Assembly (NCBI GenBank): GCA_040880145.1
Contig: JBBDIZ010000024.1
Span: 12,423-76,422 of the forward strand
Origin: Simkaniaceae bacterium
GTDB lineage: Bacteria > Chlamydiota > Chlamydiia > Chlamydiales > JAJFMI01
Direction of reading: 5' to 3'
Length of the DNA stretch: 64,000 nt
Both the position numbers and the translations under genes were made by a program. Shown one piece after another: positions 1 to 26,422 of this stretch; position 1 is the stretch's first letter, and each line of letters begins with the position of its first letter. The notes below the pieces were generated by a model. It was not told the DNA's origin and searched no databases. It saw nothing but the letters and a program-made list of their open reading frames with translations.

Positions 1-1
1 T

Positions 2-208
2 GTCATTAGTTTAAATTTGGGGCTTCTCAACCTACTTCCGCTTCCGATTTTAGACGGGGGCCATATTTGCTTTTCTCTAATTGAAATGGTTCGGAAAAAG
101 CCACTGAAAGCAAAAACAATGCAAAGGTTAATTATTCCATTTGTTGTCATCTTTATTCTTTTCTTTCTCTTTATCACGTTTCAAGATATTTTGAAGATCT
201 ATAGGTAA
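2..208 (+). CDS. rseP: RseP-like site-2 protease (peptidase M50), C-terminal fragment; 5' end lies outside the window
   Basis: The frame is open from the window edge. The peptide [17 protein letters not shown] matches the conserved NLLPxPxLDGG motif of RseP/YaeL proteases and is followed by a terminal TM helix. Confidence 0.6.
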
Positions 209-212
209 AAAA

Positions 213-746
213 ATGAAATTGAAATTAGCCTATTACGGTTCTAAATGGCTTCGTAAAAGAGCAAAAGAGATCGATGCAATTACACCTGAGATTAGAGAGT
301 TGGCAGCAGCCATGATTGACCTCATGAATCAATGCAAGGGGGTGGGAATTGCTGCAAACCAGGTAGAAAGAGACCTCCGAATTTTTATCACTAAATGTCC
401 CTTCTATAATCAGGAAGACGAATGGATAGAAGGCGAAACCTTGGTCTATATTAACCCAAAAATCATCTCACATTCTGATGAACTGGTGATCTTTGATGAT
501 GGCTGCCTGTCTATTCCTGGAGTTTACCGCGATCACCCGCGGCCTAAACATATTCAAATTGAAGCTCTCGACTTAGAGGGTCAACTCATAAAAAAAGAAC
601 TATCTGATTTTGAAGCCTTTAACTTCATGCATGAGCTCGATCATTTAAATGGAGTTCTCTTCATCGACCGCTTAGATCAAAGAGCGCGAAAGAAGTTGAA
701 GCCGCAACTTCAAGAGATTAAAAAAAAGTATTCTTCTTCCACTTAG
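213..746 (+). CDS. def: peptide deformylase
   Basis: 177 aa with the three deformylase motifs GVGIAANQ, DGCLSIPG and HELDHLNG. Confidence 0.9.
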   Translation: MKLKLAYYGSKWLRKRAKEIDAITPEIRELAAAMIDLMNQCKGVGIAANQVERDLRIFITKCPFYNQEDEWIEGETLVYINPKIISHSDELVIFDDGCLSIPGVYRDHPRPKHIQIEALDLEGQLIKKELSDFEAFNFMHELDHLNGVLFIDRLDQRARKKLKPQLQEIKKKYSSST

Positions 747-752
747 CATAAA

Positions 753-1092
753 TAGACATCTTGCATAACCCCAATTCTCTGCCCCTGCCCTTGCCCCTGC
801 CCTTGCCCTTGCCCGATTAGTGTTTTTTTTGAGCCATTTTCACTAGCATGGACACTATTAGGTAAATGTTCTATTATAACATCCGCTAGTATGACAAATT
901 CTATTGCCACTTGGTATACGGTTAATTTCTCATGGTCTAAAAGAATTCGTTTCTGTACAGAAGGAACGGCTTAAAAAATAGTATTGTGTGCCAGAACTTT
1001 TTCAAACTTTTCGGGCAAGGGCAAGGGCAAGGGCAAGGGCAAGGGCAGGGGCAGGGCAAGGGCAGGGGAATTGGGGTTATGCAAGATGTCTA
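753..1092. repeat. 340-bp palindromic element: 25-nt unique termini plus C3/G3 hexamer microsatellite arms around a ~190-bp non-coding core
   Basis: Left arm 753-815 is tagacatcttgcataaccccaattc followed by GCCCYT hexamers. Right arm 1012-1092 is its reverse complement with four extra GGGCAA-type units. No credible ORF lies inside. Confidence 0.8.
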
Positions 1093-1095
1093 ATT

Positions 1096-1124
1096 AAAAA
1101 AACCCGGAGAAGATTCCCCGGGTT
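1096..1124 (-). terminator. rho-independent terminator downstream of dnaK
   Basis: The minus strand reads AACCCGG, a 10-nt loop, CCGGGTT, then a T-run. It starts 24 nt after the dnaK stop codon. Confidence 0.7.
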
Positions 1125-1147
1125 GTCAATTGGAAGAAAAGTAGGGC

Positions 1148-3064
1148 TTACTTTTCTCCTTCGTCAAGAACTTCAACTTCAGCATCCTCGATATCAGGAT
1201 TATCCTGATTAGAGGAAGAAGCTTCGCTTCCGGGCATGGGGCCGGCTTCAGGAGAGGCGCCGGCTGGGCCTTGCATATTCTCGCCAATTTTCTGAATCGC
1301 TTGATTGAGATCATTTATACAGGTGCGCATTTGATCGACAGCGCCTGATTCTTTTGCTGTTTTCAGAGCGTCGATTTTGCCTTGAATTTCTGAGACGATT
1401 GCTTCAGGAAGCTTTTCCGCATAATCAGTAAGAGCTTTTTCTGATCGGAAGATTAAAGCATCTGCCTCATTTTGGGTATCGATGCTCTCTTTGCGCTGTT
1501 TATCTTCATCAGCATTCTCTTCCGCATCTTTTACCATACGGTTAATTTCATCCTCAGAAAGCCCTGATTTTGCTTCAATTCGGATATTCTGTTCTTTACC
1601 TGACTTTAGATCTTTTGCTGAAACGCGCAGGATCCCATCGGCATCGATGTCGAAGGAGACCTCGATTTGCGGTGTGCCGCGCGGGGCAGGCGGGACATCT
1701 GTCAGGTCAAAGCGACCAATTTCCTTGTTGTCCTTTGCCATGGGACGCTCTCCCTGAAGGACCACAATGGTCACAGCAGGTTGATTATCTGCAGCTGTTG
1801 AGAAAGTCTGCTTTTTTTGCGTCGGAATGGTTGTATTTCTCTCAACAAGAGGAGTCATCACCCCGCCGAGAGTTTCAATTCCGAGGGTAAGAGGGATCAC
1901 ATCCAGAAGAAGAACATCCTTCACATCACCTGAGAGAACTCCCCCTTGAATGGCAGCTCCACATGCAACAACTTCATCGGGGTTCACACCTTTATGGGGC
2001 TCACGTCCAAAAAGCTCTTTGACACGCTCTTGAACAAGAGGCATGCGCGTCATACCACCGACTAAAATGACTTCATGAATCTGCTCTTTGGAGAGCTTGG
2101 CATCTTTAATGGCGTTTAAGCAAGGCTTAATGGTTCTTTCGACAAGCTTCATTGTTAATTCTTCAAATTTAGCTCGTGTCAGAGTGAGTGTTAAGTGTTT
2201 AGGCCCAGAAGCATCCATGGTGATAAAGGGCTGGTTAATCTCTGTAGAAGTTGTGCCGGAAAGCTCAATTTTTGCTTTCTCAGCAGCATCTTTTAATCGC
2301 TGAAGCGCCATTTTATCTTTCGATAGATCAATGCCATTTTCGCGTTTAAACTCTTCAAGGAGATAGTTAATGATAGCGGTATCGAAATCATCACCGCCTA
2401 AATGCGTATCGCCATTTGTTGCTAGAACCTCGACGACACCCTCTGAAATCTCTAAGATAGAGATATCAAAAGTACCGCCTCCGAGGTCATAAACTGCTAT
2501 GTTTTGATCCGCTGTCTTATCGAGACCATAGGAAAGAGCAGCAGCTGTTGGTTCTGGGATAATACGCTTAACGTCAAGACCTGCAATGCGTCCTGCATCT
2601 TTTGTGGATTGACGCTGGGAGTCATTGAAGTAAGCCGGAACAGTGATAACGGCTTCGGTTACTTTTTCTCCAAGGTAGGCTTCTGCAGTCTCTTTCATTT
2701 TTGTTAGAATCTGAGCGGCAACTTCTTCAGGAGTGAGGTCATTCCCATCAACTTCAAAAATCGCATCACCTTTTCCATTTGCTTTGACTTTATAAGGAAC
2801 GGTACTGATTTCACCTGCTACTTCTGAATATTTACGGCCGATAAAACGTTTTGTAGAATAAAGCGTCTTTTCAGGGTTTGTCACCGCTTGGCGCTTGGCG
2901 GGAACTCCAACCAATCTTTCATCTTTTTTGTAACCGACGATTGAGGGGGTTGTGCGCGTACCTTCTGCATTCGCAATAACCTTCGCTTCTTTTCCTTCCA
3001 TGATTGCTACGCAGGAGTTTGTTGTCCCGAGATCAATCCCAATAATTTTGGATTTTTTAGCCAT
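1148..3064 (-). CDS. dnaK: molecular chaperone DnaK (Hsp70)
   Basis: 638 aa with Hsp70 signatures [17 protein letters not shown] and [11 protein letters not shown]. grpE and hrcA lie immediately upstream. Confidence 0.97.
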
Positions 3065-3067
3065 ATT

Positions 3068-3601
3068 TTACGACTCCTTTTCTTTTTCTAAATTAATTCT
3101 TTTTGCGACCTTTACCTTTGAGGGGCGTAAAATACGCTCTCCCGATTTGTAGCCGCGGATAAACTCTTTTAAAATGGTACCCTCTTCCACATCATCTCGA
3201 TCCTCAACCTCCATGGCTTCATGCAGGTTGGGATCAAACGCCTCTCCAAGAGAGTCATAAGAGTCAATACCATTATTTTTTAATACATCTTTTAGCTCGG
3301 TTAAAATCATACGGAAGCCAAAAGCCCAATTTTTGACCTCATCGCTCATATTTTCGCTATGACCCAGGGCACTTTCAAAGTTATCCAGGGGAGCTAAAAA
3401 GTCTTCCAAAACACCCTCTGCAGCAAACTTGACCATCTTCTGACGCTCTTTTTGCATTCGTTTTAAGGTATTTTCATTATCTGCAAGAGCTTGAAGATAC
3501 TTATTTTTATAATCGAGCTCTTCCTGCTCTTTTTGAATCTCTTCGAGCGTCACACCCTCATTTTCATGGGCGGACTCCTGATTTTTCTCTTCATCACTCA
3601 T
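3068..3601 (-). CDS. grpE: nucleotide exchange factor GrpE
   Basis: 177 aa with an acidic coiled-coil N-terminus and a conserved FDPNLHEAM region. It sits between hrcA and dnaK, 3 nt from the dnaK start. Confidence 0.9.
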   Translation of the reverse strand: MSDEEKNQESAHENEGVTLEEIQKEQEELDYKNKYLQALADNENTLKRMQKERQKMVKFAAEGVLEDFLAPLDNFESALGHSENMSDEVKNWAFGFRMILTELKDVLKNNGIDSYDSLGEAFDPNLHEAMEVEDRDDVEEGTILKEFIRGYKSGERILRPSKVKVAKRINLEKEKES

Positions 3602-4721
3602 GGTATTGCCTTTTATCTTCTATTAAATGATCTACTTTCACATCCATCACCTCTTGATTGGGTTGACGGAAGGAGATTTTAAAAGCGTGGGTGCTTTTTG
3701 TTAAGGATTGACTGAGCAGGCCGCTAAAATTACGAAGCAGTCCAAAAAGACGAGGGTAGTCGACTCTTGAAGGGCCAAGGAGCGTAATCACACCGGCAGA
3801 TTTGCCTTGAATGCGGTAAGGAATGCAAATCAGTGCGGCATCAACCTCATCATTAGTAAAGGAGGAGAGATCCTCACTTCCAATAAAAAAGGTGAGTTCA
3901 TCGCGCTCAATCGTTTCAGTGATCAGATGGCTCAAAAGTGTGGGATTTTCAAAGAGAGAGAGAGAGGAGCCAAGAGCTCTTGCATCATTAAGCTCTTCGA
4001 ACTTCAGAAGCTGAGAAAACCCCATTCGATAAATATCACGAGAGGAGAAATTGGCATAATTCACAATGTGACGCAATAAAACCTCATGAAAAAGATGGCT
4101 TAGAAGCTCTTCTTCATCATCCATAAGTGCTTCACACTCTTGTCGATGAATTTTACATTTAAGCTGCGTTTCAATTCGCTTTAAAGAGAGATAAGAAAAG
4201 CGTCTTTCAAGAAATAGGGTTTCAGTACGAATTAATCCAAAGTCCGTAATGATCACAACTAAGAGCTGTTCATCGTCAATCTTCACAAGTTTGACATCAC
4301 GAATTTGATCATGATCAAAACGGGGAGCGGAAAGCAAAACAGCCAAACCCGTTATCTCTGAAAGAGCCTGTAAAGAACCTGAAAGCATTTTCACAACCTC
4401 TTGGCTTTCAGATTCGATACGGCCTTCTAGAAATAGACGATCTTCCGGCTTAATATCGGTGGTATGCGCATGAAAAGCGGCATAACTTTTCAGCCCAAAC
4501 GCTGTCGGCGTTCGGCCACCAGAAGAGTGAAGCTGCTTTAAAAAGCCCCCTTCCTCTAACTTGGCATAGTAGTTCCGAATGGTCGCAGAGCTTAAATGAT
4601 CAAAGCCGTTTTCCTTAAGTGTATTAGAACCAATAGGTTGACCACCTTCAATAAAAAGCCGAATTAGCCCTCTTAAGACAGCTTGCTCACGCTCTAGTTT
4701 CGCTGATTTACCTTTTTTCAC
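3594..4721 (-). CDS. hrcA: heat-inducible transcription repressor HrcA (GTG start)
   Basis: 375 aa with an N-terminal winged-helix-like region (GGQPIGSNTL). It is the first gene of hrcA-grpE-dnaK and overlaps grpE by 8 nt. CIRCE-like sites lie upstream. Confidence 0.88.
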   Translation of the reverse strand: MKKGKSAKLEREQAVLRGLIRLFIEGGQPIGSNTLKENGFDHLSSATIRNYYAKLEEGGFLKQLHSSGGRTPTAFGLKSYAAFHAHTTDIKPEDRLFLEGRIESESQEVVKMLSGSLQALSEITGLAVLLSAPRFDHDQIRDVKLVKIDDEQLLVVIITDFGLIRTETLFLERRFSYLSLKRIETQLKCKIHRQECEALMDDEEELLSHLFHEVLLRHIVNYANFSSRDIYRMGFSQLLKFEELNDARALGSSLSLFENPTLLSHLITETIERDELTFFIGSEDLSSFTNDEVDAALICIPYRIQGKSAGVITLLGPSRVDYPRLFGLLRNFSGLLSQSLTKSTHAFKISFRQPNQEVMDVKVDHLIEDKRQYHE

Positions 4722-4748
4722 TTAGCACCAACACCTTTTTTCTGCTAA
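4722..4748 (-). promoter_or_regulatory. CIRCE-like operator 1, abutting the hrcA start codon
   Basis: The minus strand reads TTAGCAGAA-N9-TGGTGCTAA versus the consensus TTAGCACTC-N9-GAGTGCTAA. The 9-nt spacer is exact, and the arms match 6/9 and 7/9. Confidence 0.5.
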
Positions 4749-4758
4749 ATCTACTCTG

Positions 4759-4787
4759 ATTTTAACAGAGGATGCCGGAAAAAGCAA
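4759..4787 (-). promoter_or_regulatory. candidate sigma-70-type promoter of hrcA-grpE-dnaK
   Basis: The minus strand reads TTGCTT-N17-TAAAAT and lies between the two CIRCE-like sites, 38 nt upstream of the GTG start. Confidence 0.45.
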
Positions 4788-4792
4788 GTTTT

Positions 4793-4819
4793 TTAGCACT
4801 CTAATCCTTAGATTGCAAA
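4793..4819 (-). promoter_or_regulatory. CIRCE-like operator 2, upstream of the candidate -35
   Basis: The minus strand reads TTTGCAATC-N9-GAGTGCTAA. The right arm matches the consensus 9/9 and the left arm 7/9, with an exact 9-nt spacer. Confidence 0.55.
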
Positions 4820-4845
4820 AAAAAGCCACCTATCTAGAGGTGGCT
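4817..4845 (-). terminator. rho-independent terminator of the 4877-5359 gene
   Basis: Stem AGCCACC, an 8-nt loop, and stem GGTGGCT, followed on the minus strand by a T8 run. It lies 32 nt after the stop codon. Confidence 0.65.
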
Positions 4846-4876
4846 AATTATAAAATGATCTATGATTGAGCTTCAA

Positions 4877-5359
4877 TTAAGAGGCTGCAGATAGAGCCAT
4901 CGGAATAGTAAAAAGAATTAGAATCAGAGCTAGAAATAAGAAGGGAGAAGCGATTGCAAGTGTAAAAAAATGAGTTAGCAAAATACCTGCGGTGAGCGAA
5001 GCTAAAAAAAGACCCGCACTTAGCAGGGTTACCCCAATAAGAACTTTTTTAAAATTAGTAGTTACTTCTTTTAATTCATAAGTGGTCCCGTCTATAGGGA
5101 TCTCCTTTGCAGGGGTTTCGGCTATAGTGATCTCCTTTGCAGGGGTTTTGGCTATATAATATCGAGAGCTCCCATCTTCTATAGTTAGAGGGATCCCGTT
5201 TTTATATATAGGGGTCTTGTCTGCATATCGAGAGATCACGTTTTTTATAGTTAGAGGGATCCCGTTTTTATATAGATATTCGTTTTCTGGGTTGTTTTTA
5301 AACATATCTATTTCTGTAACGTTATGCGAACTTATATTAGATTGATTATTGACTGACAT
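4877..5359 (-). CDS. hypothetical membrane protein with internal repeats and a C-terminal ~55-aa bilobed hydrophobic domain (Inc-like)
   Basis: 160 aa. A 22-aa unit YKNGIPLTI...SRY occurs twice and ETPAKEI occurs twice. The C-terminus VLIGVTLLSAGLFLASLTAGILL...LAIASPFLFLALILILFTIPMAL forms two adjacent TM helices. The gene has its own terminator. Confidence 0.5.
   Translation of the reverse strand: MSVNNQSNISSHNVTEIDMFKNNPENEYLYKNGIPLTIKNVISRYADKTPIYKNGIPLTIEDGSSRYYIAKTPAKEITIAETPAKEIPIDGTTYELKEVTTNFKKVLIGVTLLSAGLFLASLTAGILLTHFFTLAIASPFLFLALILILFTIPMALSAAS
5099..5290. repeat. intragenic direct repeats (30 bp x2 at 5099-5156; 66 bp x2 at 5159-5290)
   Basis: gatctcctttgcaggggttt(c/t)ggctata is duplicated with a 30-bp period. 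atatcgagag...tagttagagggatcccgtttttatata is duplicated with a 66-bp period. Confidence 0.75.
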
Positions 5360-5469
5360 TTGTTTTACCTCTTTAGTTTATTATTTATTAATAACTAAAT
5401 CATAACAATTATTTAATAAATAGTAAACAAAATATTTATACTATATTTATTGTACTAATATTCAAGTGT

Positions 5470-8400
5470 TTAGTTGATGAGGTCGATTTGGTGGTCGCTC
5501 GAAAGGTTCTTCTCGAATACTGCGGGATCGCGGATTACAAGAGGAAGAACGTCGACAATTGTGGGCTGCCAGGATAGACCTCGCTTGTAGACCAGGCGAG
5601 CAGCAATGTAGGAGGCGATCATGGCTTTTTTATGGACCTCGGGGATGTTTGTCAAAATGCGCTCTTTGTAATTTTCTCTTAAGAATTGGGGGCAAGAGCT
5701 TAGAAGACACTGGATAAGAGGGTCATTGTGGTTTTTTGAAAGGGCAATGGTTTCGAGATAATCGAGGATTTGGTAGGTGAAGGTGTTGATGCGCTCGGAG
5801 ACCCATTCGGAGATATCGGTGAAAAAGGCTCCTGTTTCTGCATGGGTGCGGATGATCAGCTGAGCTTCAAAGCGCGCTTTTTCAGCGATGAGGTTGAGGA
5901 TTTGGGGCATGAGGATTTTTTTGTGATTCACAAATTCATCATCATTTAGTACAAGCCCAATCAATACTTCAAATGAGGAGCAGATAACCCCTCCTTTATT
6001 GGCAGAACTATCTTTAATGATAATGGTTCCGGCAAGCTCGAGTTCTCTTCGAGCAATAGGAGTGAGATAAAGATTGGCGCCTTCGATGATCGCCTTTGAT
6101 GAGGGGTGTTTGTTTTCGTCGAGATATTCTGTCCAGTTCTGGTCATTAAGAGTTCGAGGGCGGCCGCCTGCAGGGACAAAGACATCGGTTTTTACTTGGT
6201 GGACATTGTGTCGGAGCAAGTGGTTCATATCGTTGCCCGATAACCACTCTTTGACAAGCTCTCCTTTTTCTTTACGCCAGCAAAGGGTCTGTTTCGAATA
6301 GGCAGATTGCTCTTTTTTTGTGAAAACATCTAAGAGAAAGCCGCCGTCATGGAGGAGCTCAGGGGGATAATGGCGGATCGATTGGGATTGTTTGAAGAGG
6401 TTGACCATCGCCTCTAGATCGAGTCCTTCCGGATCGTAAATGGTTCCTGAAACATCGATAAGGGCTAAGAGCTTGGCTGTTTTTGGGTAATATTTATAGA
6501 GGTTATAGATTTCATTTCCGGCGACATCGCCGTCAGGCCCTCCTGAAATCTTTATCGTAAAGGGCTCTTTTTTAGGATCAATGCCCAAAAACAGAAGCGT
6601 TTCTTCCATGCAAACATTTACGCCAAGCGAGGTGACTCCAAACTCTTTGTGATTGATCCCGTAGGTGGGTTTTGAAGAAATAAAAGCGCTGCCGACTTTA
6701 TACTTCACGCTTTTACTAAATGCTGCAATCCACTCGATCATCTCATTGTGCATATTCTCATCAGGCCCGAGATAGATGTATTCGGGATTTTTATAGTAGT
6801 CAACGATGTGTTTAGCTTTTAATCTGCCATCTTCCTCACAATTGATTAAGGACATAAAACTGTGAATAAAGCCGCGCTGCGTTTGATAAAGATATTGAAG
6901 CTTTTGTTCTTTTTTAAATGTATCGATAAACGATGCAATTTCATCGAGGGGAATTTGTGCGAGCTTCAGTTCTTTCTCGTAGATTTTAGCCTCAAATAGA
7001 AGCCGTTCATAGGGTTCTAGAAAAATAACTGCTTTTGAGCCGCCTTCCGGGATGTCTTTGTTTTTCTTTTGCTGGGTGTAGGCCAGATTATAACATTCGG
7101 TGAATACGTTATTGCGCTCGCTAATCATTTGTTCATATTTTTGAGGGAAAACAGTGCGAAGTCCTCCTCGAGAAAGGTCTTTGAAACGGATATGAAATCC
7201 AATAAAGTACATTCCTTGGACAAAGAAGATACCAAAGGGAAGATCCGGAAATTTTTCTGTTCGATCAAAGGGAAGTGCGTCTAAATAGGAGGGGTCTAGG
7301 CGGTAAGATAAGCCGACTTTATTATTGCGGTAAAAATTCGTTTTCAAGGTGTAGGTGATAAAATTCAACCCTTGAAGTAGGATGTTCTTTCGCCTCATAT
7401 CATTGATTTGATTTCCTGTGTCGAGCGCTTCAACAAGAGTTTCAAATTTTGTTGACTTTATATTAAAGCTCTGAATATCAGCATTGTCAGGGTGGAATTT
7501 CTCTTCAAAAAGCTCGCAAAGCTTGACGGTTAGTTCAGGGTGGCGGCACAAGCCTTCTTCAATATGAGATAGGCTATAAAGGTTGGGATCTGCGTGGACT
7601 AAGGCTTGGTGGCAAAAATTCACCATTGTTCTTAAAAAATTACCAAGATTTCCTCTAACTAACTGGGGGGTAATGAAAACTTCTTCAATTTGATCTTGAT
7701 CGTCAAAGTATTTCAGCGTGACAAGCTCGCGTAAAAAATCATCGATATCACTAGCTTCCCAGGCGGGCCGGTCATCAGCCCCATGAAGTCCTAAGGATAA
7801 AATGAGAATATTCTGCTTTTTATAAGGATCGATATAGGTGGCATTTACCCGCGTCAGGGTTAGATTATGCCGATTGACAAGTTTCGCCAGCCTATAGAGG
7901 AAGCGGTGCTTTGGGGCATTTCTCCAAGCGAGCACAATCTGCATGGAAGGAGTGTTTTTCCCTTGGCTTTCCCAATCTTTATTAAAGCGGACTTCATATT
8001 GGCAGCGATCTCGAACGAGCGCTCGTAAATACATATCTAAGGCGATCGTCAATCTTTCGTGCGTAACAGAGCGTACAAAACGGGAGTTAATCCCTTCGAT
8101 TAGGTGATAAAAAAGATCTTTTGTAAGCTCAGGGTTTTGCTTTTTGACCTCTTTAAAAAGCTTAGATTGCTCTTCAGTTGAAAGCATTTTCTTTGCAGAC
8201 TTCTCTGTTTCATGGAATTCTGTAAAAAAAATGACGCCTACGCGAAGTTTTTCCTTGCAGCCTTCAAAAGGAGGCGGCTCATCGGAAACGAAAGTCATAT
8301 AGTTTTTAATGCCATACATATTGTAGTGCTTTAAAATTCGAATATCAGCATCAGGGGAGTCTAAACAAGAGACAATCGCGCAGTTTTGTAGTCGAAATTG

Positions 8401-8601
8401 AGAAAAGTAGTCTTGAAGAGGAAATCCCATCAAATTATGGGCTACCATGATCACATGCAGGGGTTCGACCTCATCAAAGAAGCTTGGGGGCATATGGCTC
8501 TCTAGCCAATGGATATAGTCTTCAAAAAGACGACTCTCTTTTTGAACAACCCCTTTTAACTCTTCATCCGAAAGGCGTTTTTTGTCGGAGTTATCCGCCA
8601 T
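5470..8601 (-). CDS. NAD-specific glutamate dehydrogenase, large (~115 kDa, GDH2-like) class
   Basis: 1043 aa with motifs SRGGLRTV, GPDENM, GINHKEFGVTSLG, GGPDGDVAGNE, PAGGRPRTLN and EGANLYLT, as recalled for the large NAD-GDH family. Confidence 0.8.
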   Translation of the reverse strand: MADNSDKKRLSDEELKGVVQKESRLFEDYIHWLESHMPPSFFDEVEPLHVIMVAHNLMGFPLQDYFSQFRLQNCAIVSCLDSPDADIRILKHYNMYGIKNYMTFVSDEPPPFEGCKEKLRVGVIFFTEFHETEKSAKKMLSTEEQSKLFKEVKKQNPELTKDLFYHLIEGINSRFVRSVTHERLTIALDMYLRALVRDRCQYEVRFNKDWESQGKNTPSMQIVLAWRNAPKHRFLYRLAKLVNRHNLTLTRVNATYIDPYKKQNILILSLGLHGADDRPAWEASDIDDFLRELVTLKYFDDQDQIEEVFITPQLVRGNLGNFLRTMVNFCHQALVHADPNLYSLSHIEEGLCRHPELTVKLCELFEEKFHPDNADIQSFNIKSTKFETLVEALDTGNQINDMRRKNILLQGLNFITYTLKTNFYRNNKVGLSYRLDPSYLDALPFDRTEKFPDLPFGIFFVQGMYFIGFHIRFKDLSRGGLRTVFPQKYEQMISERNNVFTECYNLAYTQQKKNKDIPEGGSKAVIFLEPYERLLFEAKIYEKELKLAQIPLDEIASFIDTFKKEQKLQYLYQTQRGFIHSFMSLINCEEDGRLKAKHIVDYYKNPEYIYLGPDENMHNEMIEWIAAFSKSVKYKVGSAFISSKPTYGINHKEFGVTSLGVNVCMEETLLFLGIDPKKEPFTIKISGGPDGDVAGNEIYNLYKYYPKTAKLLALIDVSGTIYDPEGLDLEAMVNLFKQSQSIRHYPPELLHDGGFLLDVFTKKEQSAYSKQTLCWRKEKGELVKEWLSGNDMNHLLRHNVHQVKTDVFVPAGGRPRTLNDQNWTEYLDENKHPSSKAIIEGANLYLTPIARRELELAGTIIIKDSSANKGGVICSSFEVLIGLVLNDDEFVNHKKILMPQILNLIAEKARFEAQLIIRTHAETGAFFTDISEWVSERINTFTYQILDYLETIALSKNHNDPLIQCLLSSCPQFLRENYKERILTNIPEVHKKAMIASYIAARLVYKRGLSWQPTIVDVLPLVIRDPAVFEKNLSSDHQIDLIN

Positions 8602-8639
8602 AGTAATATTACCTCTTATTTTTAATTATAATCAGGTAA

Positions 8640-10556
8640 TTATTTTTTTAAAAGCCTAAGGCTATTTAATCCGACAAGAATCGTACCTCCTTCATGAAGG
8701 ATCACGGCAAGATAAAGGGGAATGTAGCCAAGAAGCGCGGGTGTTGTTGCAAGAAATATCACTCCAAGAGCAAGAACTAAATTTTGTTTTACGATTTTAA
8801 GTGTTTTTTTGGCCTTGTGCGTTAACCAAACAAGAAGTTCTAAATCATCGTTAAGTAGGATAATATCAGAAGCATCAATCGCCGTATCGCTTCCGATTTT
8901 TCCGAGAGAGATGCCGACATTGGCTCGGGTTAAAGCGGGAGCATCGTTGATTCCATCACCAACCATAGCAAGATTTTTCTCTTTTGCGATGAGTTTCATT
9001 TTATCATCGGGCTTAAGGCTTGAGCGATAATTGGCGATGTCCAAGCTTTTTGCAATAAAGGAGGCATTTTCTTCGTGATCCCCTGTGTACATTAAGATTT
9101 TGTAAAAAGACTTGAGTTTTTTTATAGTTTCTTTCATGTGCGGCCGGAGCTTATCGCTGAATTTAAATAGAAAAAGCTCTTCATCGATGAGTAGAAAAGC
9201 AAGAATTTCTCCTTCAGAAAAAGGAATCGAGGGAGGGTTTTTCAGTTTAGATAAAATGTAATCGCGGTGGCCGATGAAAATAGGTTTGCCTTCCCATTTT
9301 CCTTCTAATCCGTAACCTGGATGGGAGTGAAAGTCTGTGATTTTTTCAATGGGAAATTCTTTAGCATAATCGATGAGTGCTGTACTAATGGGGTGGGTTA
9401 CGGATTTTTCGAGTTCCCGTGCTAAAGAAATGGCTTGGGCATTTGTGATAGTTTTCTGCCTGATGGGAACAAGGTCTGTAACTTTCAGCTCGCCGGTTGT
9501 TAGGGTTCCTGTTTTATCAAAAGCCAGCGTATCGCAAGCGGCTAGAGCATCGAATTGGACACCTCCTTTTAGTAAAATTCCTTTTTTTGCAGCGGCGCTT
9601 AAGGCGCTCAAATAGGCGGTAGGAGTGGCAATGATTAGGGCGCAAGGAGAGGCGGCGATAAGAAAGGCAAGAGATCGGTAGAGGGAGCCTTCTGCTGTAA
9701 GGAAGGGGATCTTTAACAGAAAGGGAAAGGTCAGGGCAAAAAGAGCAGAAAGTAAGATAATGGTTATGGAATAAGCCTTTGAAAATCGATCGAAAAGTCT
9801 CATGACCTTTGGTTTGGCACTTTGCGCTTCATCGATGAGCTTAAGAATGCGGGAGAGAGTGGACTCGGACGAGCTTTTGGTAACTTGAATCAAAAGCGTG
9901 CCATCTAAATTGCGACTACCCGCTTGCACATCATCTCCAGCTTTTTTCGGCTGAGGAAGGCTTTCTCCTGTGAGATGAACAAGATTGAGTGTGCTCGCAC
10001 CCTCTAAGACAAGGCCATCTAAGGGAACGATTTCACCAGCCTTTACGAGAATGCAGCTTCCAACAGAGATCTCTTTTACCGATTTTTGAAAGGTTCGCCC
10101 TAGCTCTGAAAGGGTTGCAAAATGGGGGGTGATTTCATGGAGATGATGAAGAGCTGATTTCGAGCGCATCGAGACACTTTTTTCCATAGCTCCTGAAAGA
10201 GCAAAAAGAACAAGAAGAAGGGCGCCTTCCATTGGGGATCCGATTAATATGGACATAAAGGCTGCAAGCGTCATTAAGACGTCGATATTGATCTCTAAGG
10301 CTTTAATATCCTCAAAAGTATCAATTAACGCAGGTGTGCCTGAAAAAAAGAATACAAATGTGAGAAGAAGCGGCGTGATGTTTAAAGAAGTAAAAGAAAA
10401 GATAAAAGCCAAAAGAAGGAGGAAAGCGGATAGAAGAGCGCTTTTTAAAGGAAGGTTCCGTCCCCATTTTTTGGATGAAGGGGTTAGAAAGGGGCTTACG
10501 CTCTCCTCTTTGTCTGAGGCAAAGAACTCATCAAAAAGATAGGGGGTGTTTTCCAT
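8640..10556 (-). CDS. P1B-4-type heavy-metal translocating P-type ATPase (start moved to MENTPY)
   Basis: Motifs are DKTGTLT, GDGINDAP, a transmembrane SPC motif (AASPCALII) and a terminal-helix HEGGT. There is no N-terminal CxxC metal-binding domain. The ATG at 10556 overlaps the upstream stop as TAATG. Confidence 0.85.
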   Translation of the reverse strand: MENTPYLFDEFFASDKEESVSPFLTPSSKKWGRNLPLKSALLSAFLLLLAFIFSFTSLNITPLLLTFVFFFSGTPALIDTFEDIKALEINIDVLMTLAAFMSILIGSPMEGALLLVLFALSGAMEKSVSMRSKSALHHLHEITPHFATLSELGRTFQKSVKEISVGSCILVKAGEIVPLDGLVLEGASTLNLVHLTGESLPQPKKAGDDVQAGSRNLDGTLLIQVTKSSSESTLSRILKLIDEAQSAKPKVMRLFDRFSKAYSITIILLSALFALTFPFLLKIPFLTAEGSLYRSLAFLIAASPCALIIATPTAYLSALSAAAKKGILLKGGVQFDALAACDTLAFDKTGTLTTGELKVTDLVPIRQKTITNAQAISLARELEKSVTHPISTALIDYAKEFPIEKITDFHSHPGYGLEGKWEGKPIFIGHRDYILSKLKNPPSIPFSEGEILAFLLIDEELFLFKFSDKLRPHMKETIKKLKSFYKILMYTGDHEENASFIAKSLDIANYRSSLKPDDKMKLIAKEKNLAMVGDGINDAPALTRANVGISLGKIGSDTAIDASDIILLNDDLELLVWLTHKAKKTLKIVKQNLVLALGVIFLATTPALLGYIPLYLAVILHEGGTILVGLNSLRLLKK

Positions 10557-11272
10557 TACTGTAAAATCTCGATTAGAAACGTCAGAGTGAAATAGCCGAT
10601 TAAGGCAAGTGAAAGAGTCCAACTGACTTGACGGATTAGGTTGTTTTGATTTTTTTTAGCAAGTAAAAAGGTGAAGCAGGCGGAAAGAGTCAATGAGAGG
10701 GGGAGTAAAGCATGAAAGCGAGCTGCAATGAGCAATACCAAACAACTGAGGCTTGAGCCTAAAAAAGCACCAAACCCTTGTCTAAGGGGATGTTCAAAAC
10801 TCTCTAAGGTCAATCCCAATTCTTCTTCTAGCATGACTTTTAATAAACGATTATCATCGGCCATCAAGACCTCTACAGTCTCCTCGAGTAAGCTTCCGGA
10901 TAGTCCTTTAGCGCGGTACATCTCCAATAGTTCTTCTTTTTCCTGAGCGCGATGATGAAGAATCTCATAACGCTCTTCTTCAATCAGGCGATGAAGACGC
11001 TCTAATCGGAAATAACCGAGCTGAGCAGAGCGGCCTGTTTTCCAAAGAATCAGAGGGATTGAAATGATAAAAAGGGTGGAGGAAGAAGAGGGGAGAAGGC
11101 TTAGAAAAAGAAGGATAACAGCCAGTTCTCTGCCGCTATCACAGAATGCCGAGAGAAAACCGGAGCTTTCTGTTCCATGCATTTCACCTGAAGCGCAAGC
11201 CCCTTTTTGGCGAGCCCGAAGGAGGTGTTTTTTGACATCAGTGCCTTCAAAATGTTTTGCATCTTTTTTCAT
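10556..11272 (-). CDS. VIT1/CCC1-like membrane protein (putative Fe/Mn transporter), divergent
   Basis: 238 aa. The central cytoplasmic stretch EEERYEILHHRAQEKEELLEMYRAKGLSGSLLEETVEVLMADDNRLLKVMLEEELGL resembles the VIT-family metal-binding loop and is flanked by TM helices. The N-terminal GxNDG motif is degenerate. Confidence 0.5.
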   Translation of the reverse strand: MKKDAKHFEGTDVKKHLLRARQKGACASGEMHGTESSGFLSAFCDSGRELAVILLFLSLLPSSSSTLFIISIPLILWKTGRSAQLGYFRLERLHRLIEEERYEILHHRAQEKEELLEMYRAKGLSGSLLEETVEVLMADDNRLLKVMLEEELGLTLESFEHPLRQGFGAFLGSSLSCLVLLIAARFHALLPLSLTLSACFTFLLAKKNQNNLIRQVSWTLSLALIGYFTLTFLIEILQ

Positions 11273-12543
11273 TAATTTAGCCGATCAAGTCCTCCGAGAT
11301 AGGGTCTAAGTACTTCAGGCAGAGTAATCGATCCATCTTCATTTTGATTGTTTTCTAAAAGAGCAACCATAAGTCGAGCGGTTGCGACACCCGATCCATT
11401 TAAGGTGTGAACGAGCTCAGGCTTTTTCTGCCCTAGCCTATAGCGGATTTTAGAGCGCCTTGCCTGGAAATCGCGACAATTTGAAACAGAGGAAACCTCA
11501 TAATACCGATCTTGACCCGGAAGAAAAACCTCGATATCGACGGTTCGAGAAGCTGCAAAAGCCATGTCGCCTGTGACAAGAAGCATATTTCGGAAGTGAA
11601 GGTTCAGCCCCTTAAGCACTTCTTCGGCCGATTGAATCATTGACTCAAACATTTCATCACTCTTCTCAGGTTCTGTAAAAGCGAACATTTCAACCTTGTT
11701 GAATTGATGCACACGGATCAATCCGCGCTCCCCGGCGCCGGCGGCGCCGCTCTCTCTTCGAAAACAAGGGGTATAGGTGATGTATTTTTTAGGCAATTCA
11801 TCTTTCGAAAAAATTTCATCTAAGTGCATTCCATTGAGAGAAACCTCGCCGGTCGGAATTAATGTAAAAGGGTAATCAGGATCATCGAGCTTATAAAACT
11901 GACCTTGAAATTTTGGAAGCTGCGCAGAGGCATACATGGCCTCCTCTTTTACCAGGTGAGGAACAAGACAGAATGTGAATCCATTTTTCAAATGAATATC
12001 GATCATATAATTGAGAAGCGCCCACTCAAGGCGCGCTCCCATATCCCGATAGATAGGCCACCCCGTTCCAGTGAGTTTTGCCCCCCGCACAAAATCAAAA
12101 ATGCCCAATTTTTCATTGAGCTCAAGGTGATTTTTGGGAGAAAAAGAGAATGAGGGGGCCTTTGAAAAGGTTTTGATGCAAACATTTTCCTTAGGGTCTA
12201 GAGAAATTTTGACATCGTGATCTGGAATGTTCGGAAGATAAAGAAGGCGTTTTTCAAGTTTTTCTTCGGAAGTTTTTAGTTCAAGATTAAGCTTTGAAAG
12301 AGATTCTTTTATTTCTATAACTTTTGATGTAATCGTTGAATCATCTTGACCTAGGCGTTTTTTTTCACCGATTTTTTTAGAGGTTTTTTTAAGATGGGAG
12401 CGTAATAATTCTGCCTCTGTTTTCAAAGAACGCACTTGCTCATCGATTGATAAAATTTCTTTTAAATCGATGGTTGGATCCTTTGACCTTAATTTCTTTT
12501 CAATTTCTCGAGCGTTGTCTCTAATTTTTTTTATATCTAACAT
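11272..12543 (-). CDS. serS: seryl-tRNA synthetase
   Basis: 423 aa with an N-terminal coiled-coil arm and a class II core (FRRESGAAGAGERGLIRVHQFNKVE, NGSGVATARL). Confidence 0.95.
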   Translation of the reverse strand: MLDIKKIRDNAREIEKKLRSKDPTIDLKEILSIDEQVRSLKTEAELLRSHLKKTSKKIGEKKRLGQDDSTITSKVIEIKESLSKLNLELKTSEEKLEKRLLYLPNIPDHDVKISLDPKENVCIKTFSKAPSFSFSPKNHLELNEKLGIFDFVRGAKLTGTGWPIYRDMGARLEWALLNYMIDIHLKNGFTFCLVPHLVKEEAMYASAQLPKFQGQFYKLDDPDYPFTLIPTGEVSLNGMHLDEIFSKDELPKKYITYTPCFRRESGAAGAGERGLIRVHQFNKVEMFAFTEPEKSDEMFESMIQSAEEVLKGLNLHFRNMLLVTGDMAFAASRTVDIEVFLPGQDRYYEVSSVSNCRDFQARRSKIRYRLGQKKPELVHTLNGSGVATARLMVALLENNQNEDGSITLPEVLRPYLGGLDRLN

Positions 12544-12667
12544 AATTTTTTTTACCGGTTGATCTCATATTTTAGCCCTAAACCCATTAAAAGGGGAGTG
12601 AAAAATATCCCTTATATGTTATAAAAGAGGGACATCCTATCATTAACCCTCCAAAGTAAGATTCACG

Positions 12668-13774
12668 ATGGCCAAATCAAACGAAAAAAAAGAAGCAAAA
12701 AATCCTTTAATTCTTCGCTTTCATCGCATGTTAGATGCTTTTTCTAAATCAGATGATGAGCGCGACTTTTATATCGATCGTCAAGAGGGCTTTATCGTCT
12801 TTGTCGACTTGGACAAAAATGACGAGGAGCTCCTAGCTTTAGAGAAAGAGATTCAATCTCATGAAGGCCGTTATGTTCTTTTTCCTAAGATGAGCTATTT
12901 TGAGACAAAGAAGTTTATGGAAGGCTTTGTTAACGAAAAAGTTTATGATATCGACACAAAAGAAAAGCTTCTTGCAATTATTGCGGGCAAGGAATCACGA
13001 GAAAATTTTTTAGAGTTTATCTATGACCATGTCGCTGAAATGGAGAGATGGCAGCAGTATTATCACGAGCGCTCTCGAATTCGCATTATTGGCTGGTTAA
13101 TCGAGGAAGAGTTTGATTTTGTTTTTGAAGAAGACCTTGAAATTCAAAATAGCACGATAGAGAAGGTGAAAAGCCATCTTTTTGATACACGGGCATCTAA
13201 GGAAGTTTCATCGGCAAGGGATGCCATCAAAACAAAAGCAAAGAGCTACTATTCGACAGAGGCGCTCAATCCGCGTCCCAAAAGGGGCCGCCCTCCCAAG
13301 CAACAGCAGAAGGTTGAAGTTGAGCCTGAATTAACTCAAGACATCTATCAAACAGTTCCATCCTCTCTACGCCCTTTTCTCTTTATGCCTGATTTTTCAG
13401 GGGAGAGCGTTACTTTCTCAGCGAAGCATGATAATGAAACGCAATTTTTAGCGAGTTTAAAAGGGACAACGGCAAAAGTGGATACGAGCCTTCAAGTTCT
13501 TTCTCAGCGGTTAGAGTCACTGCGCCACCTTTCAGAGCGCTTAAGAGGAACTACAGATGAAAAGCTTCTTCAAGGCGAAGAGAAATTGATGCAGGCGATC
13601 TCTAAAAGAGAGGAGTCTGAGGGAGAGAAGGTCGTAGAAGTTGCAAAGGGATTTTTGCCGAAAAAGCGAACTTCCACTTCGACAGACGGGAAGGATATTG
13701 GAGAAAGACTTGGCCGGAAAAGAAAGGCAGGTTCTAAAAAAGTCTCTGAAATAAAGAGAAAAAAGAAATCATGA
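12668..13774 (+). CDS. conserved hypothetical protein, UPF0158-like N-terminal half plus basic C-terminal half with an AT-hook-like RPKRGRPPK
   Basis: 368 aa. The N-terminus is recalled as resembling chlamydial UPF0158 proteins. A GRP-core AT-hook motif is visible. The ATGA overlap couples it to the next gene. Confidence 0.4.
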   Translation: MAKSNEKKEAKNPLILRFHRMLDAFSKSDDERDFYIDRQEGFIVFVDLDKNDEELLALEKEIQSHEGRYVLFPKMSYFETKKFMEGFVNEKVYDIDTKEKLLAIIAGKESRENFLEFIYDHVAEMERWQQYYHERSRIRIIGWLIEEEFDFVFEEDLEIQNSTIEKVKSHLFDTRASKEVSSARDAIKTKAKSYYSTEALNPRPKRGRPPKQQQKVEVEPELTQDIYQTVPSSLRPFLFMPDFSGESVTFSAKHDNETQFLASLKGTTAKVDTSLQVLSQRLESLRHLSERLRGTTDEKLLQGEEKLMQAISKREESEGEKVVEVAKGFLPKKRTSTSTDGKDIGERLGRKRKAGSKKVSEIKRKKKS

Positions 13775-25573: not shown

Positions 25574-26422
25574 TTAAGCATTTTTAATTCTTTCGAGAAA
25601 ATCAGCTTTTTCTACAGAGTCTTGTGGTAAGAATTTAATAAGGTTAGAAGTCATATCCCATTTTTCTTCTATAATATAGAAGTCAATCAACTCAATCATA
25701 ATATTTTCTTTTAAAAACTTGTCGTCTATTTTGTTTAAGAATGAACATATCACAATTAGTTTGTCAAAATATTTAATTTTATTAATAAACTTTATTGAAT
25801 TTTTATTTACGATCTTTTGATCGGTAATATTAGATATCGCACAAAAAGCAGTGATATGAATATTTTCGAATTCTAATTTGGTTAAATTATTAAATTCTGA
25901 ATCGTTAATTTTTATTACAATTCTATAGAAAAGGTTAGAGATGATTTTTTCTTTATAAATGTGATTGGAATTCATTAATTTTTTTTTAATAGAATTTGCA
26001 ATATTTAGGGCTGAAGAAAATTCTTTTTTTCTTAAAAAATTCGAGAATCTTGCCTCAAGTAAGCGAATATCTTGAATAGGCGCAGGGTTAGGGTCTTGAA
26101 TAAGGACTGGGTTAGGGTCTTGAATAGGTGCAGGGTTAGGGTCTTGAACAGGCGCAGGGTTAGGGTCTTGAATAGGCGCAGGGTTAGGGTCTTGAATAGG
26201 CGCAGGGTTAGGATCGTGAATAGGGGCGGGATCTAGAGGACAACAAAATTTGAAAAAAACCTCCATTAGAAACATGACGATAAGAAAAAGAGGAATAATG
26301 ATGATAAGTAGGGGCGAGAGGAGGAAATAAACGAGGATGTGCACGGTCTTGAGAACGCATGATTCCTCATTAGGAATAAGAAAGTTAATTGTTTTAATAG
26401 TATAGGGTGCAATTGTTTCCAT
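25574..26422 (-). CDS. hypothetical Inc-like membrane protein with seven PAPIQDPN repeats
   Basis: 282 aa. The N-terminal ~40-aa hydrophobic block is VHILVYFLLSPLLIIIIPLFLIVMFLMEVFF, followed by a Pro-rich 8-aa tandem repeat and an AT-rich Asn/Ile/Lys C-terminal domain. Confidence 0.55.
   Translation of the reverse strand: METIAPYTIKTINFLIPNEESCVLKTVHILVYFLLSPLLIIIIPLFLIVMFLMEVFFKFCCPLDPAPIHDPNPAPIQDPNPAPIQDPNPAPVQDPNPAPIQDPNPVLIQDPNPAPIQDIRLLEARFSNFLRKKEFSSALNIANSIKKKLMNSNHIYKEKIISNLFYRIVIKINDSEFNNLTKLEFENIHITAFCAISNITDQKIVNKNSIKFINKIKYFDKLIVICSFLNKIDDKFLKENIMIELIDFYIIEEKWDMTSNLIKFLPQDSVEKADFLERIKNA
26070..26237. repeat. 24-bp tandem repeat, 7 units (last degenerate), in frame
   Basis: Units of tcttgaataggcgcagggttaggg start at 26070, 26094, 26118, 26142, 26166, 26190 and 26214. 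Confidence 0.9.

Follow-up and report, generated by a model that had tools for sequence, protein, structure and literature searches.

A palindrome with hexamer-repeat arms between def and dnaK of a Simkaniaceae bacterium is very probably a miniature derivative of a chlamydial insertion sequence

The 64,000-nucleotide stretch of Simkaniaceae DNA analyzed here (contig JBBDIZ010000024.1, positions 12,423 to 76,422; hereafter, the window) carries near its left end two convergent genes, def (213-746, + strand), which is peptide deformylase by its homologues and PF01327, and dnaK (1148-3064, - strand), assigned by PF00012 and followed by grpE. The spacer between them holds a palindrome whose two ends, 753-777 (TAGACATCTTGCATAACCCCAATTC) and 1068-1092, are exact reverse complements of each other. 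These features had been pointed out in a sequence-only reading of the stretch and were fully recovered in our analysis: the 25-mer terminus has no other match in the window at up to 3 mismatches (chance expectation, 0), Tandem Repeats Finder returned a hexamer array inside each end, and a tract count gave seven C-tracts of at least three nucleotides in 769-814 and 11 G-tracts, with loops of 2-3 nt, in 1013-1076. The motif GGGCARGGGCAR was matched 13 times where 0.67 matches are expected, in both arms and, with one mismatch, at 14488. The arms are also the only canonical G-quadruplex (G4) motifs (G3+N1-7, four times) in the 64 kb (1013-1076 on the + strand and 782-814 on the - strand), with mean G4Hunter scores of +1.38 and -1.30, in agreement with the uniqueness that had been claimed for them. 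Their anticipated pairing into a single stem was reproduced by RNA folding, which predicted a stem of ~62-65 bp (-178 kcal/mol, z = -12.4).

Comparison with an insertion sequence of environmental chlamydiae revealed what this palindrome very probably is: window positions 754-1091 constitute a miniature inverted-repeat transposable element (MITE), that is, a 338-bp internally deleted, non-coding copy of a parent element of ~1.43 kb (Table 1). On the minus strand, the window copy corresponds in blastn to parent positions 1-89, 999-1109, and 1332-1433, with their order and orientation kept. Parent positions 1-89, comprising the left end, array, and leader, run from window 1092 back to 971 (the blastn segment itself joins 971-1044 on the - strand to parent 25-89), whereas parent 999-1109 is found at 970-860 with 91% DNA identity. 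The latter segment belongs to the second gene of the parent, encoding a four-helix-bundle (4HB) protein, residues 4-42 of which match window 970 to 854 at 85% identity in tblastn (E = 6e-18). Parent 1332-1433, defined on the full-length element in locus L014, lies at window 858-753 and supplies the last ~12 codons of the 4HB gene, its stop codon, the array, and the right end; here, 4HB residues 115-124 match window 858 to 829 at 100% in tblastn. What remains in the window copy is thus the two ends, each including its array, 33 bp of leader from the left side, and ~40 codons from the start and ~12 from the end of the 4HB gene; deletion has removed the middle of that gene and the transposase gene in its entirety. 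No convincing tblastn match to the transposase was obtained in the 64 kb (best E = 0.17, with 30% identity over 44 residues). The loss of these two regions leaves the element non-autonomous and non-coding. The core had been described as devoid of a credible ORF; it is indeed non-coding, but not anonymous, being made of recognizable fragments of the 4HB gene and the leader. The 55-aa ORF at 743-910 has no Pfam match, and we dismissed the small ORFs that run across the arms (GQGQGQ...) as by-products of the palindrome. Overall, the element possesses both termini and internal sequence of its parent, lacks a transposase, is small, and is bordered by the target duplication of the family, as is characteristic of a MITE.

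Table 1. Features of the def/dnaK spacer element and its borders (window coordinates)
Feature	Position	Strand	Basis
Target-site duplication AAT, left copy	751-753		Read directly
IRR, terminal inverted repeat AGACATCTTGCATAACCCCAATTC, parent's 4HB-side end	754-777	+	Exact reverse complement of 1068-1091
Left hexamer array, 6 units YTGCCC (6.0 copies of GCCCYT), C-rich on + strand	779-814	+	Tandem Repeats Finder
4HB gene 3'-end remnant, coding ...VSMLVKMAQKKH, stop codon 817-819	815-858	-	blastn, tblastn
4HB gene 5'-part remnant, codons ~4-42	860-970	-	blastn, tblastn
Remnant of parent's left subterminal leader, upstream of transposase gene	971-1012	-	blastn
Right hexamer array, 9.5 units GGGCAR (consensus GGGCAA), G-rich on + strand	1013-1068	+	Tandem Repeats Finder, G-tract count
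IRL, terminal inverted repeat, parent's transposase-side end	1068-1091	-	Reverse complement, blastn
Target-site duplication AAT, right copy	1092-1094		Read directly; in Logan assembly too
dnaK intrinsic terminator, 10-bp stem then T-run, intact, just outside element	1124 to 1101	-

The parent was recovered as a full-length element of ~1,433 bp at 2377-3809 of loci L012 and L014, and also in L013. It reads, in order, TAGACATCTTGCATAACCTCAATYCC, five YTGCCC units, a leader, the transposase gene, the 4HB gene, five GGGCAR units, and the inverted terminus; its terminal inverted repeats are 25 bp long, and its two genes, encoding a 304-aa transposase and a ~127-aa 4HB protein, overlap. The transposase (P0135) scored 210 bits on the IS5 family model NF033581 of NCBIfam (cut-off, 140), contains the domains HTH_Tnp_4 (PF13613) and DDE_Tnp_4 (PF13359)/PF01609, and is 45% identical to the transposase of ISCaa3, an element placed in the ISL2 group of the IS5 family (PMC3196728). 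By these sequence features, and in all the respects that were tested, the parent is a member of the IS5 family, ISL2 group. Its second protein scored 77.7 bits on TIGR02436 and 83 bits on PF05635, and its closest solved structure is that of a Xanthomonas protein (PDB 2gsc). In diverged copies, the 4HB gene outside the overlap accumulated 27 synonymous versus 3 non-synonymous changes (omega 0.025) and is therefore constrained at least as strongly as the transposase N-terminus (omega 0.05-0.09). Such purifying selection argues that the 4HB gene is a functional part of the element and not junk. Both the arrays and the 4HB gene are retained in relatives whose transposases are 74-90% identical (L064, L065, and L021). 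Five more distant ISL2 relatives (50-60% identity), from Rickettsiales, Chitinophagales, Bacteroidales, and Acutalibacteraceae, share the terminus TAGAC.T..T; they measure 902-1,004 bp and have neither arrays nor a 4HB gene. We also observed that the transposase frame is split at a run of 8-9 A (ERPKKK..., at about codon 130) in many copies (L018, L019, L021, and L065), giving two ORFs of 144 and 140 aa in L065. This split could reflect programmed frameshifting, as in ISCaa3, or a homopolymer error of long reads.

The proposal that the palindrome is a non-autonomous mobile element was one of several offered in the sequence-only reading, and it is upheld by the parent element, by the target duplication, and by sibling copies, of which more than 40 were found at unrelated sites in other chlamydial assemblies. 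The search for the terminus in other genomes and metagenomes, also proposed there, produced copies in the JGI metagenome Ga0206862 and in the Chlamydiae assembly MFD01633.bin.3.44. In Ga0206862, a 22-nt terminus was found seven times in five contigs, representing elements of 302 and 314 bp, a 94-bp arms-only perfect palindrome, a truncated copy, and a solo end, all in unrelated contexts and with 1-4 hexamers per end. The 51-aa ORF of the ~305-bp elements matched no Pfam or NCBIfam family; a database search identified it as a deletion chimera joining the transposase N-terminus to the 4HB C-terminus (PF05635), and the parent proteins of this chimera led to a 1,121-bp derivative in L009/L010. A protein-guided scan of species-representative genomes located the family in MFD01633.bin.3.44, which carries the terminus with C-to-T variants, and in one Chlamydiales assembly. 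At different loci, MFD01633.bin.3.44 holds nine full-length copies that are 98-100% identical, 17 deletion derivatives whose right breakpoint is always position 669, a second deletion class represented twice, and several unique deletion derivatives. As identical deletions recur at many sites, the non-autonomous copies must be moved in trans. A scan of a viral collection for the terminus gave 0 matches.

Several rearranged copies were noted along the way. In the 94-bp perfect palindrome, at 6609-6702 of L003, each arm consists of the terminus and 3.5 hexamers, and L005 contains a 24-bp palindrome formed by the two 12-bp tips (5867-5890). An insert of ~2.2 kb breaks the element at position 348 in L016 (357-2542) and L028 (342-2525); the same position is a recurrent deletion breakpoint (L041, L042, and L032), and the insert itself holds a mini-element of 176-188 bp with the same tips and a variant inner repeat (ACAATTCC). 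Truncated right-end fragments stand in tandem behind complete right ends in L016, L033, and L041.

The borders of the element are informative as to its mode of insertion. Both ends had been said to abut TA, which we regard as a misreading: the T on one side and the A on the other are parts of the two AAT copies. Throughout the family, the flanks are invariably of the form A-N / TAGAC...GTCTA / N-T. In 23 of 36 elements, including both in which it is G, the middle base agrees between the two flanks, where agreement in 38.6% is expected (permutation p = 0.00085). All four distant ISL2 relatives with both flanks available likewise fit an A-N-T duplication. We therefore read the target duplication as 3-bp A-N-T and the element proper as extending from AGACATC to GATGTCT; the 13 discordant pairs could be due to recombination between copies or to sequencing error. 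A TA duplication, as in IS630 or Tc1/mariner elements, was dropped as less likely in view of the IS5-family transposase and of flanks that fit A-N-T. Target duplications of the IS5 family, ISL2 group, are short, at 2-3 bp. In the proposed course of events, the site before insertion would have read ...GCATAAATTAAAAAAACCCGG... with a single AAT, and a transposase supplied in trans from a full-length copy would have cut at the conserved AGAC... termini, duplicating the A-N-T target. The hexamer arrays would have been inherited from the parent and subsequently expanded by replication slippage from ~5+5 to 6+9.5 units.

Some observations weigh against this origin. The other 63 kb of the window hold neither a second copy nor an autonomous one, the exact terminus gave 0 matches in a scan of a genome collection, and no empty site was found, as the nearest Def relatives (52-56% identity) have no adjacent dnaK. 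At any one locus, a 3-bp duplication may be fortuitous; across the family, the middle base differs in 13 of the 36 pairs, so that the choice of 3 bp over TA is a statistical one. Moreover, the copy-rich genome is, by its contig names, seemingly a long-read assembly, and some of its unit counts and frameshifts may be sequencing errors. Finally, the role for the arrays that is proposed below is one that we infer.

As for the integrity of the locus, a Logan assembly of SRR27977663 contains two contigs that are 100% identical to window 1-815 and 1019-13064. Both end at the arrays and together span both junctions, the complete left array, and the right array except for its first unit. This perfect match confirms both junctions of the element and nearly all of both arrays, and positions 816-1018 rest on one assembly. 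The presence of MITE arrays explains why short-read assemblies break at this spot. Inserted 4 bp past the stop codon of def and immediately behind the T-run that ends the dnaK terminator, the element disrupts neither gene. No terminator for def was found upstream of the element, the sole terminator-like site in 600-1300 being that of dnaK on the opposite strand. At the Rfam gathering threshold, no rRNA match was obtained anywhere in the window and nothing was matched in the palindrome region. The closest Def relatives (L067-L070) have an M16 peptidase gene separating rseP and def and no dnaK after def; the convergent def/dnaK arrangement is therefore lineage-specific, since other genes lie downstream of def in these relatives. 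A site at 849-877 (+ strand) in the core of the MITE, promoter-like by consensus match only (TGGACA, a 17-nt spacer, and TATTAT, with 10 of 12 matches), aims through the right arm at the 3' end of dnaK, in antisense.

Every member of the family that we saw has a hexamer array at each end, the two being inverted relative to each other, and this extends to the relatives with 74-90% identical transposases; in L064, the units are GCCGGT/GCCCKT. The window copy apart, each end carries between 1 and 6 units, most often 5, making the window arrays (6 and 9.5 units) the longest seen in the family. Near-identical copies within one genome vary by whole hexamer units, from 2 to 6, which supports replication slippage, an explanation that had been suggested from the unequal arms of the window element.

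The nature of the arrays was further illuminated by 4HB genes outside Chlamydiae. We inspected 13 such genes of the PF05635 type without an associated ISL2 transposase (L071-L083, comprising cyanobacterial, Azospirillum, and Gemmatirosa plasmid loci). All 13 have tandem arrays of 6-8-nt units beside the ORF, and in nine the arrays form an inverted pair that brackets it; these loci are few and come mainly from cyanobacteria, in which heptamer repeats are abundant anyway. The arms read (GGGAAAA)n versus (CCCTTTT)n in Nostoc sp. ATCC 53789, (AGGAGTC)n versus its complement in N. punctiforme, and (AGGTGAC)n versus (GTCACCT)n in Anabaena sp. 90, where they lie between cas6 and cas4. L076 is an intervening sequence (IVS) in the 23S rRNA of Azospirillum lipoferum (Rfam LSU model, 644 bits), with arms of (GACAGAG/GACGGAG)n versus (CTCTGTC/CTCCGTC)n. 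The unit sequences of the 4HB systems are unrelated to one another, and most are unable to form a G4. In the Coxiella IVS, the terminal inverted repeats are cut by RNase III, and heptamer repeats of variable number lie beside the ORF (PMC4990558). One discrepancy is that the purine-rich arm lies downstream of the 4HB gene in the chlamydial element and upstream of it in the cyanobacterial cassettes and the IVS. Another is that the chlamydial arrays enclose the transposase gene in addition to the 4HB gene.

These loci also revealed where 4HB genes reside. Lone 4HB cassettes in sense orientation occur in CRISPR-Cas operons (L071 2495-2854, L074 1483-1839, and L078 489-857), between cas6 and cas4 in Pseudanabaena and Anabaena sp. 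90 and between cas10/cmr2 and cmr3 in Picosynechococcus. In homologous Nostoc plasmid operons, the cassette follows a 288-bp gene in one (L072 2474-2851) and precedes it in others (L075 1477-1842 and L082 501-866), with differing units; the different gaps and units suggest independent cassette insertions. On pCC7120gamma of Nostoc PCC 7120 (L080 1-848), the 4HB gene comes directly after an ISL3-family transposase gene, and in Stanieria (L081 498-1252) it adjoins a 'putative transposase'. From these neighbors, 4HB genes may associate with more than one transposase family.

Taken together, the arms seem to go with the 4HB module, given that ISL2 relatives lacking the 4HB gene have no arrays and that transposase-less 4HB genes are bracketed by them. 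Our preferred reading is that the arrays accompany the 4HB gene as register-tolerant complementary arms, comparable to an IVS stem, and do not serve as G4 devices. At the level of sequence, complementarity of the arms, not G-richness, is the property common to the related systems. We also considered the hexamers as additional transposase-binding sites, given the likeness of the unit YTGCC to CTTGC in the inverted repeat. This was ranked lower because the ISL2 relatives without a 4HB gene have no arrays and because transposase-less 4HB genes carry arrays of unrelated sequence.

Other explanations of the palindrome were weighed on the same evidence. The pattern that had suggested a G4 is real: a canonical motif with 11 G-tracts and short loops occurs nowhere else in 64 kb, and the G-rich heptamer repeats of Xanthomonas and Nostoc, often in inverted pairs, form G4 in vitro (PMC4692102). 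Nonetheless, that the arms are a functional G4 or i-motif, selected for its G3 spacing and regulating replication or transcription between def and dnaK, is very improbable. The arrays belong to a transposon and are present wherever it lands, copies with 1-3 units per end have too few for an intramolecular G4, and the arms of related 4HB genes (AGGAGTC, GGAGATA, AGCTAAA, and GACAGAG) cannot form one; in addition, the G-strand would be paired in duplex DNA or in the 65-bp RNA stem. The spacing hence finds no support as a selected property, and it is complementarity that is conserved instead. The idea of a structural element serving the convergent zone is not supported either, given that more than 40 copies with these arms lie at unrelated loci in other genomes and that the dnaK terminator is outside the element. 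Because that terminator is a separate site and the arms have no T-run in the direction of def, an intrinsic terminator shared by the convergent pair was rejected. A hypervariable contingency locus, in which hexamer slippage would switch a neighboring gene, draws on the variation of unit number among family copies (1-10) and is, in our estimation, extremely improbable: the arrays lie between the 3' ends of convergent housekeeping genes, outside any promoter, 5' untranslated region, or reading frame; no gene or promoter is placed to be switched by repeat number; a hexamer unit causes no frameshift even in a coding frame; and two independent sample assemblies agree on the left array and on all but the first right unit.

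The chance that a fold-back chimera of assembly created an artificial palindrome is close to negligible. Short-read contigs do break exactly at the arrays, and 816-1018 comes from one assembly, but the arms are unequal (6 versus 9.5 units), the core, itself asymmetric, follows the parent collinearly in one orientation, both junctions recur at 100% identity in an independent assembly, and siblings of the same architecture exist in other datasets. A different question is whether the MITE was co-opted as an RNA structure. With no terminator of its own before the element, def should be read through into an RNA that contains the whole element and folds into the long stem, and this ~65-bp stem could act as an RNase III site, a 3' stabilizer, or a transcription block, much as IVS stems or Correia elements do. 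The extreme folding energy would favor such a role, as would the IVSs carrying the same protein family, which are cut in their terminal stem by RNase III (PMC4990558). As an addition to the MITE origin we nevertheless consider it unlikely, since the nearest Def relatives offered no orthologous spacer that would show a conserved insertion and the siblings sit in many unrelated contexts, which makes any effect here incidental. We infer that the element has no evolved host function at the def/dnaK locus.

Beyond its origin as a MITE, the window element raises the prospect that its arms are the chlamydial form of a widespread selfish module composed of a 4HB (S23p/Avd-like) ORF and inverted tandem arrays of 6-8-nt units. 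This we regard as a serious possibility, although we tentatively place it below an even chance. Such a module would be found in three settings: in the 23S rRNA as an IVS, as a lone cassette in cyanobacterial operons (including cas operons), and fused to an ISL2 transposase. Its arms would constitute a slippage-maintained stem able to pair in any register, and the 4HB protein would be its own maintenance or mobility factor. If this were true, the chlamydial element would show how IVS-like elements can move, and the window element would represent a burnt-out case of the module. Where IVSs come from, how they move, and what their ORF does have been open questions since about 1990 (PMC4990558), and a transposase-linked, actively proliferating relative provides a concrete system in which a role of the protein and the arms in mobility or RNA processing can be tested.

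In practical terms, the palindrome is transposon debris and should be annotated as a MITE, not as a regulator of def or dnaK. The unusual traits are those of the parent family, an IS5/ISL2 element with a second gene under purifying selection and with microsatellite ends of variable length, whose 4HB gene belongs to the protein family of 23S rRNA IVSs and, as Avd, of diversity-generating retroelements. In the literature searched, we met with no account of MITEs in chlamydiae, of insertion sequences with a 4HB gene, or of such genes being associated with inverted repeat arrays; the parent element may already be registered in ISfinder. Two other repeat-bearing loci of the window were also recorded. 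At 25574-26422 (- strand), a predicted protein of 282 aa with hydrophobic N-terminal stretches contains 6.5 tandem octapeptides (DPNPAPIQ), encoded at 26070-26224 by a 24-bp DNA repeat of 90% identity. At 4877-5359 (- strand), between hrcA and a glutamate dehydrogenase-like gene, a 160-aa ORF without a Pfam family includes repeats at 5092-5276, of 30 bp (2.2 copies) and 21 bp (4.2 copies).

Comparison with known systems places these findings in context. The parent resembles the ISL2 group, exemplified by ISCaa3, in its transposase (a match to the IS5 model and 45% identity to that of ISCaa3), its inverted repeat of ~25 bp, the terminus in common with the 50-60% relatives, a very short target duplication, hosts that are intracellular bacteria, and the split at an A-run in some copies, as in ISCaa3 (PMC3196728). 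ISCaa3 itself is from 'Candidatus Amoebophilus asiaticus', and related elements occur in Orientia, Legionella, and Parachlamydia (PMC3196728). However, in described members and in the 50-60% relatives, which measure 900-1,000 bp, a single gene lies between plain inverted repeats, whereas the chlamydial family is ~1,430 bp long, has a second conserved gene, and bears hexamer arrays inside both inverted repeats, the window copy being in turn a non-coding derivative. A resemblance to the eukaryotic PIF/Harbinger transposons extends to a related transposase domain, to the pairing of a transposase with a small accessory gene in the parent, and to repeated motifs inside the ends. The PIF/Harbinger transposase domain is DDE_Tnp_4, the one matched by the parent. 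Their accessory protein is a Myb-like DNA binder, whereas that of the parent is a four-helix bundle, and the resemblance is only a lead.

Among bacterial MITEs, the Correia elements of Neisseria are comparable. Like the MITEs of Coxiella burnetii, for example (PMC5896051), the window element is small, transposase-less, and intergenic, with inverted repeats, a short target duplication, and a long hairpin, and such elements are co-transcribed with their neighbors and derived from insertion sequences by internal deletion. It differs from them in that its parent is known and its deletion breakpoints can be mapped, in that over half of each arm is variable microsatellite, and in that its core is the relic of an accessory gene and not of a transposase.

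The 23S rRNA IVSs of Coxiella and Leptospira (PMC4990558) are alike in that the parent carries a protein of the S23p/4HB family, in the size of a few hundred nucleotides, in complementary ends that form a long stem, and, in Azospirillum lipoferum, in arms made of inverted heptamer arrays. Unlike an IVS, the window element lies outside rRNA, its 4HB gene (intact in the parent) survives as two fragments, its arms terminate in inverted repeats of the transposase type, flanked by a target duplication, and the purine-rich arm is on the other side of the 4HB gene. Its location outside rRNA and the destruction of its ORF place the window element outside the IVS class. The GGGNATC repeats of Xanthomonas and Nostoc (PMC4692102) are likewise intergenic tandem arrays whose units, variable in number, are 6-7 nt long and contain G3 tracts, and each Xanthomonas genome holds 70-75 closely spaced convergent repeat pairs on opposite strands, most repeats being transcribed (PMC4692102). 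Rehm et al. 2015 treat these as free-standing repeats, with no link to a transposon or a 4HB gene (PMC4692102), whereas the window arrays are demonstrably parts of a mobile element. The chlamydial family may also help to explain why paired G-rich heptamer repeats occur in Xanthomonas and cyanobacteria.

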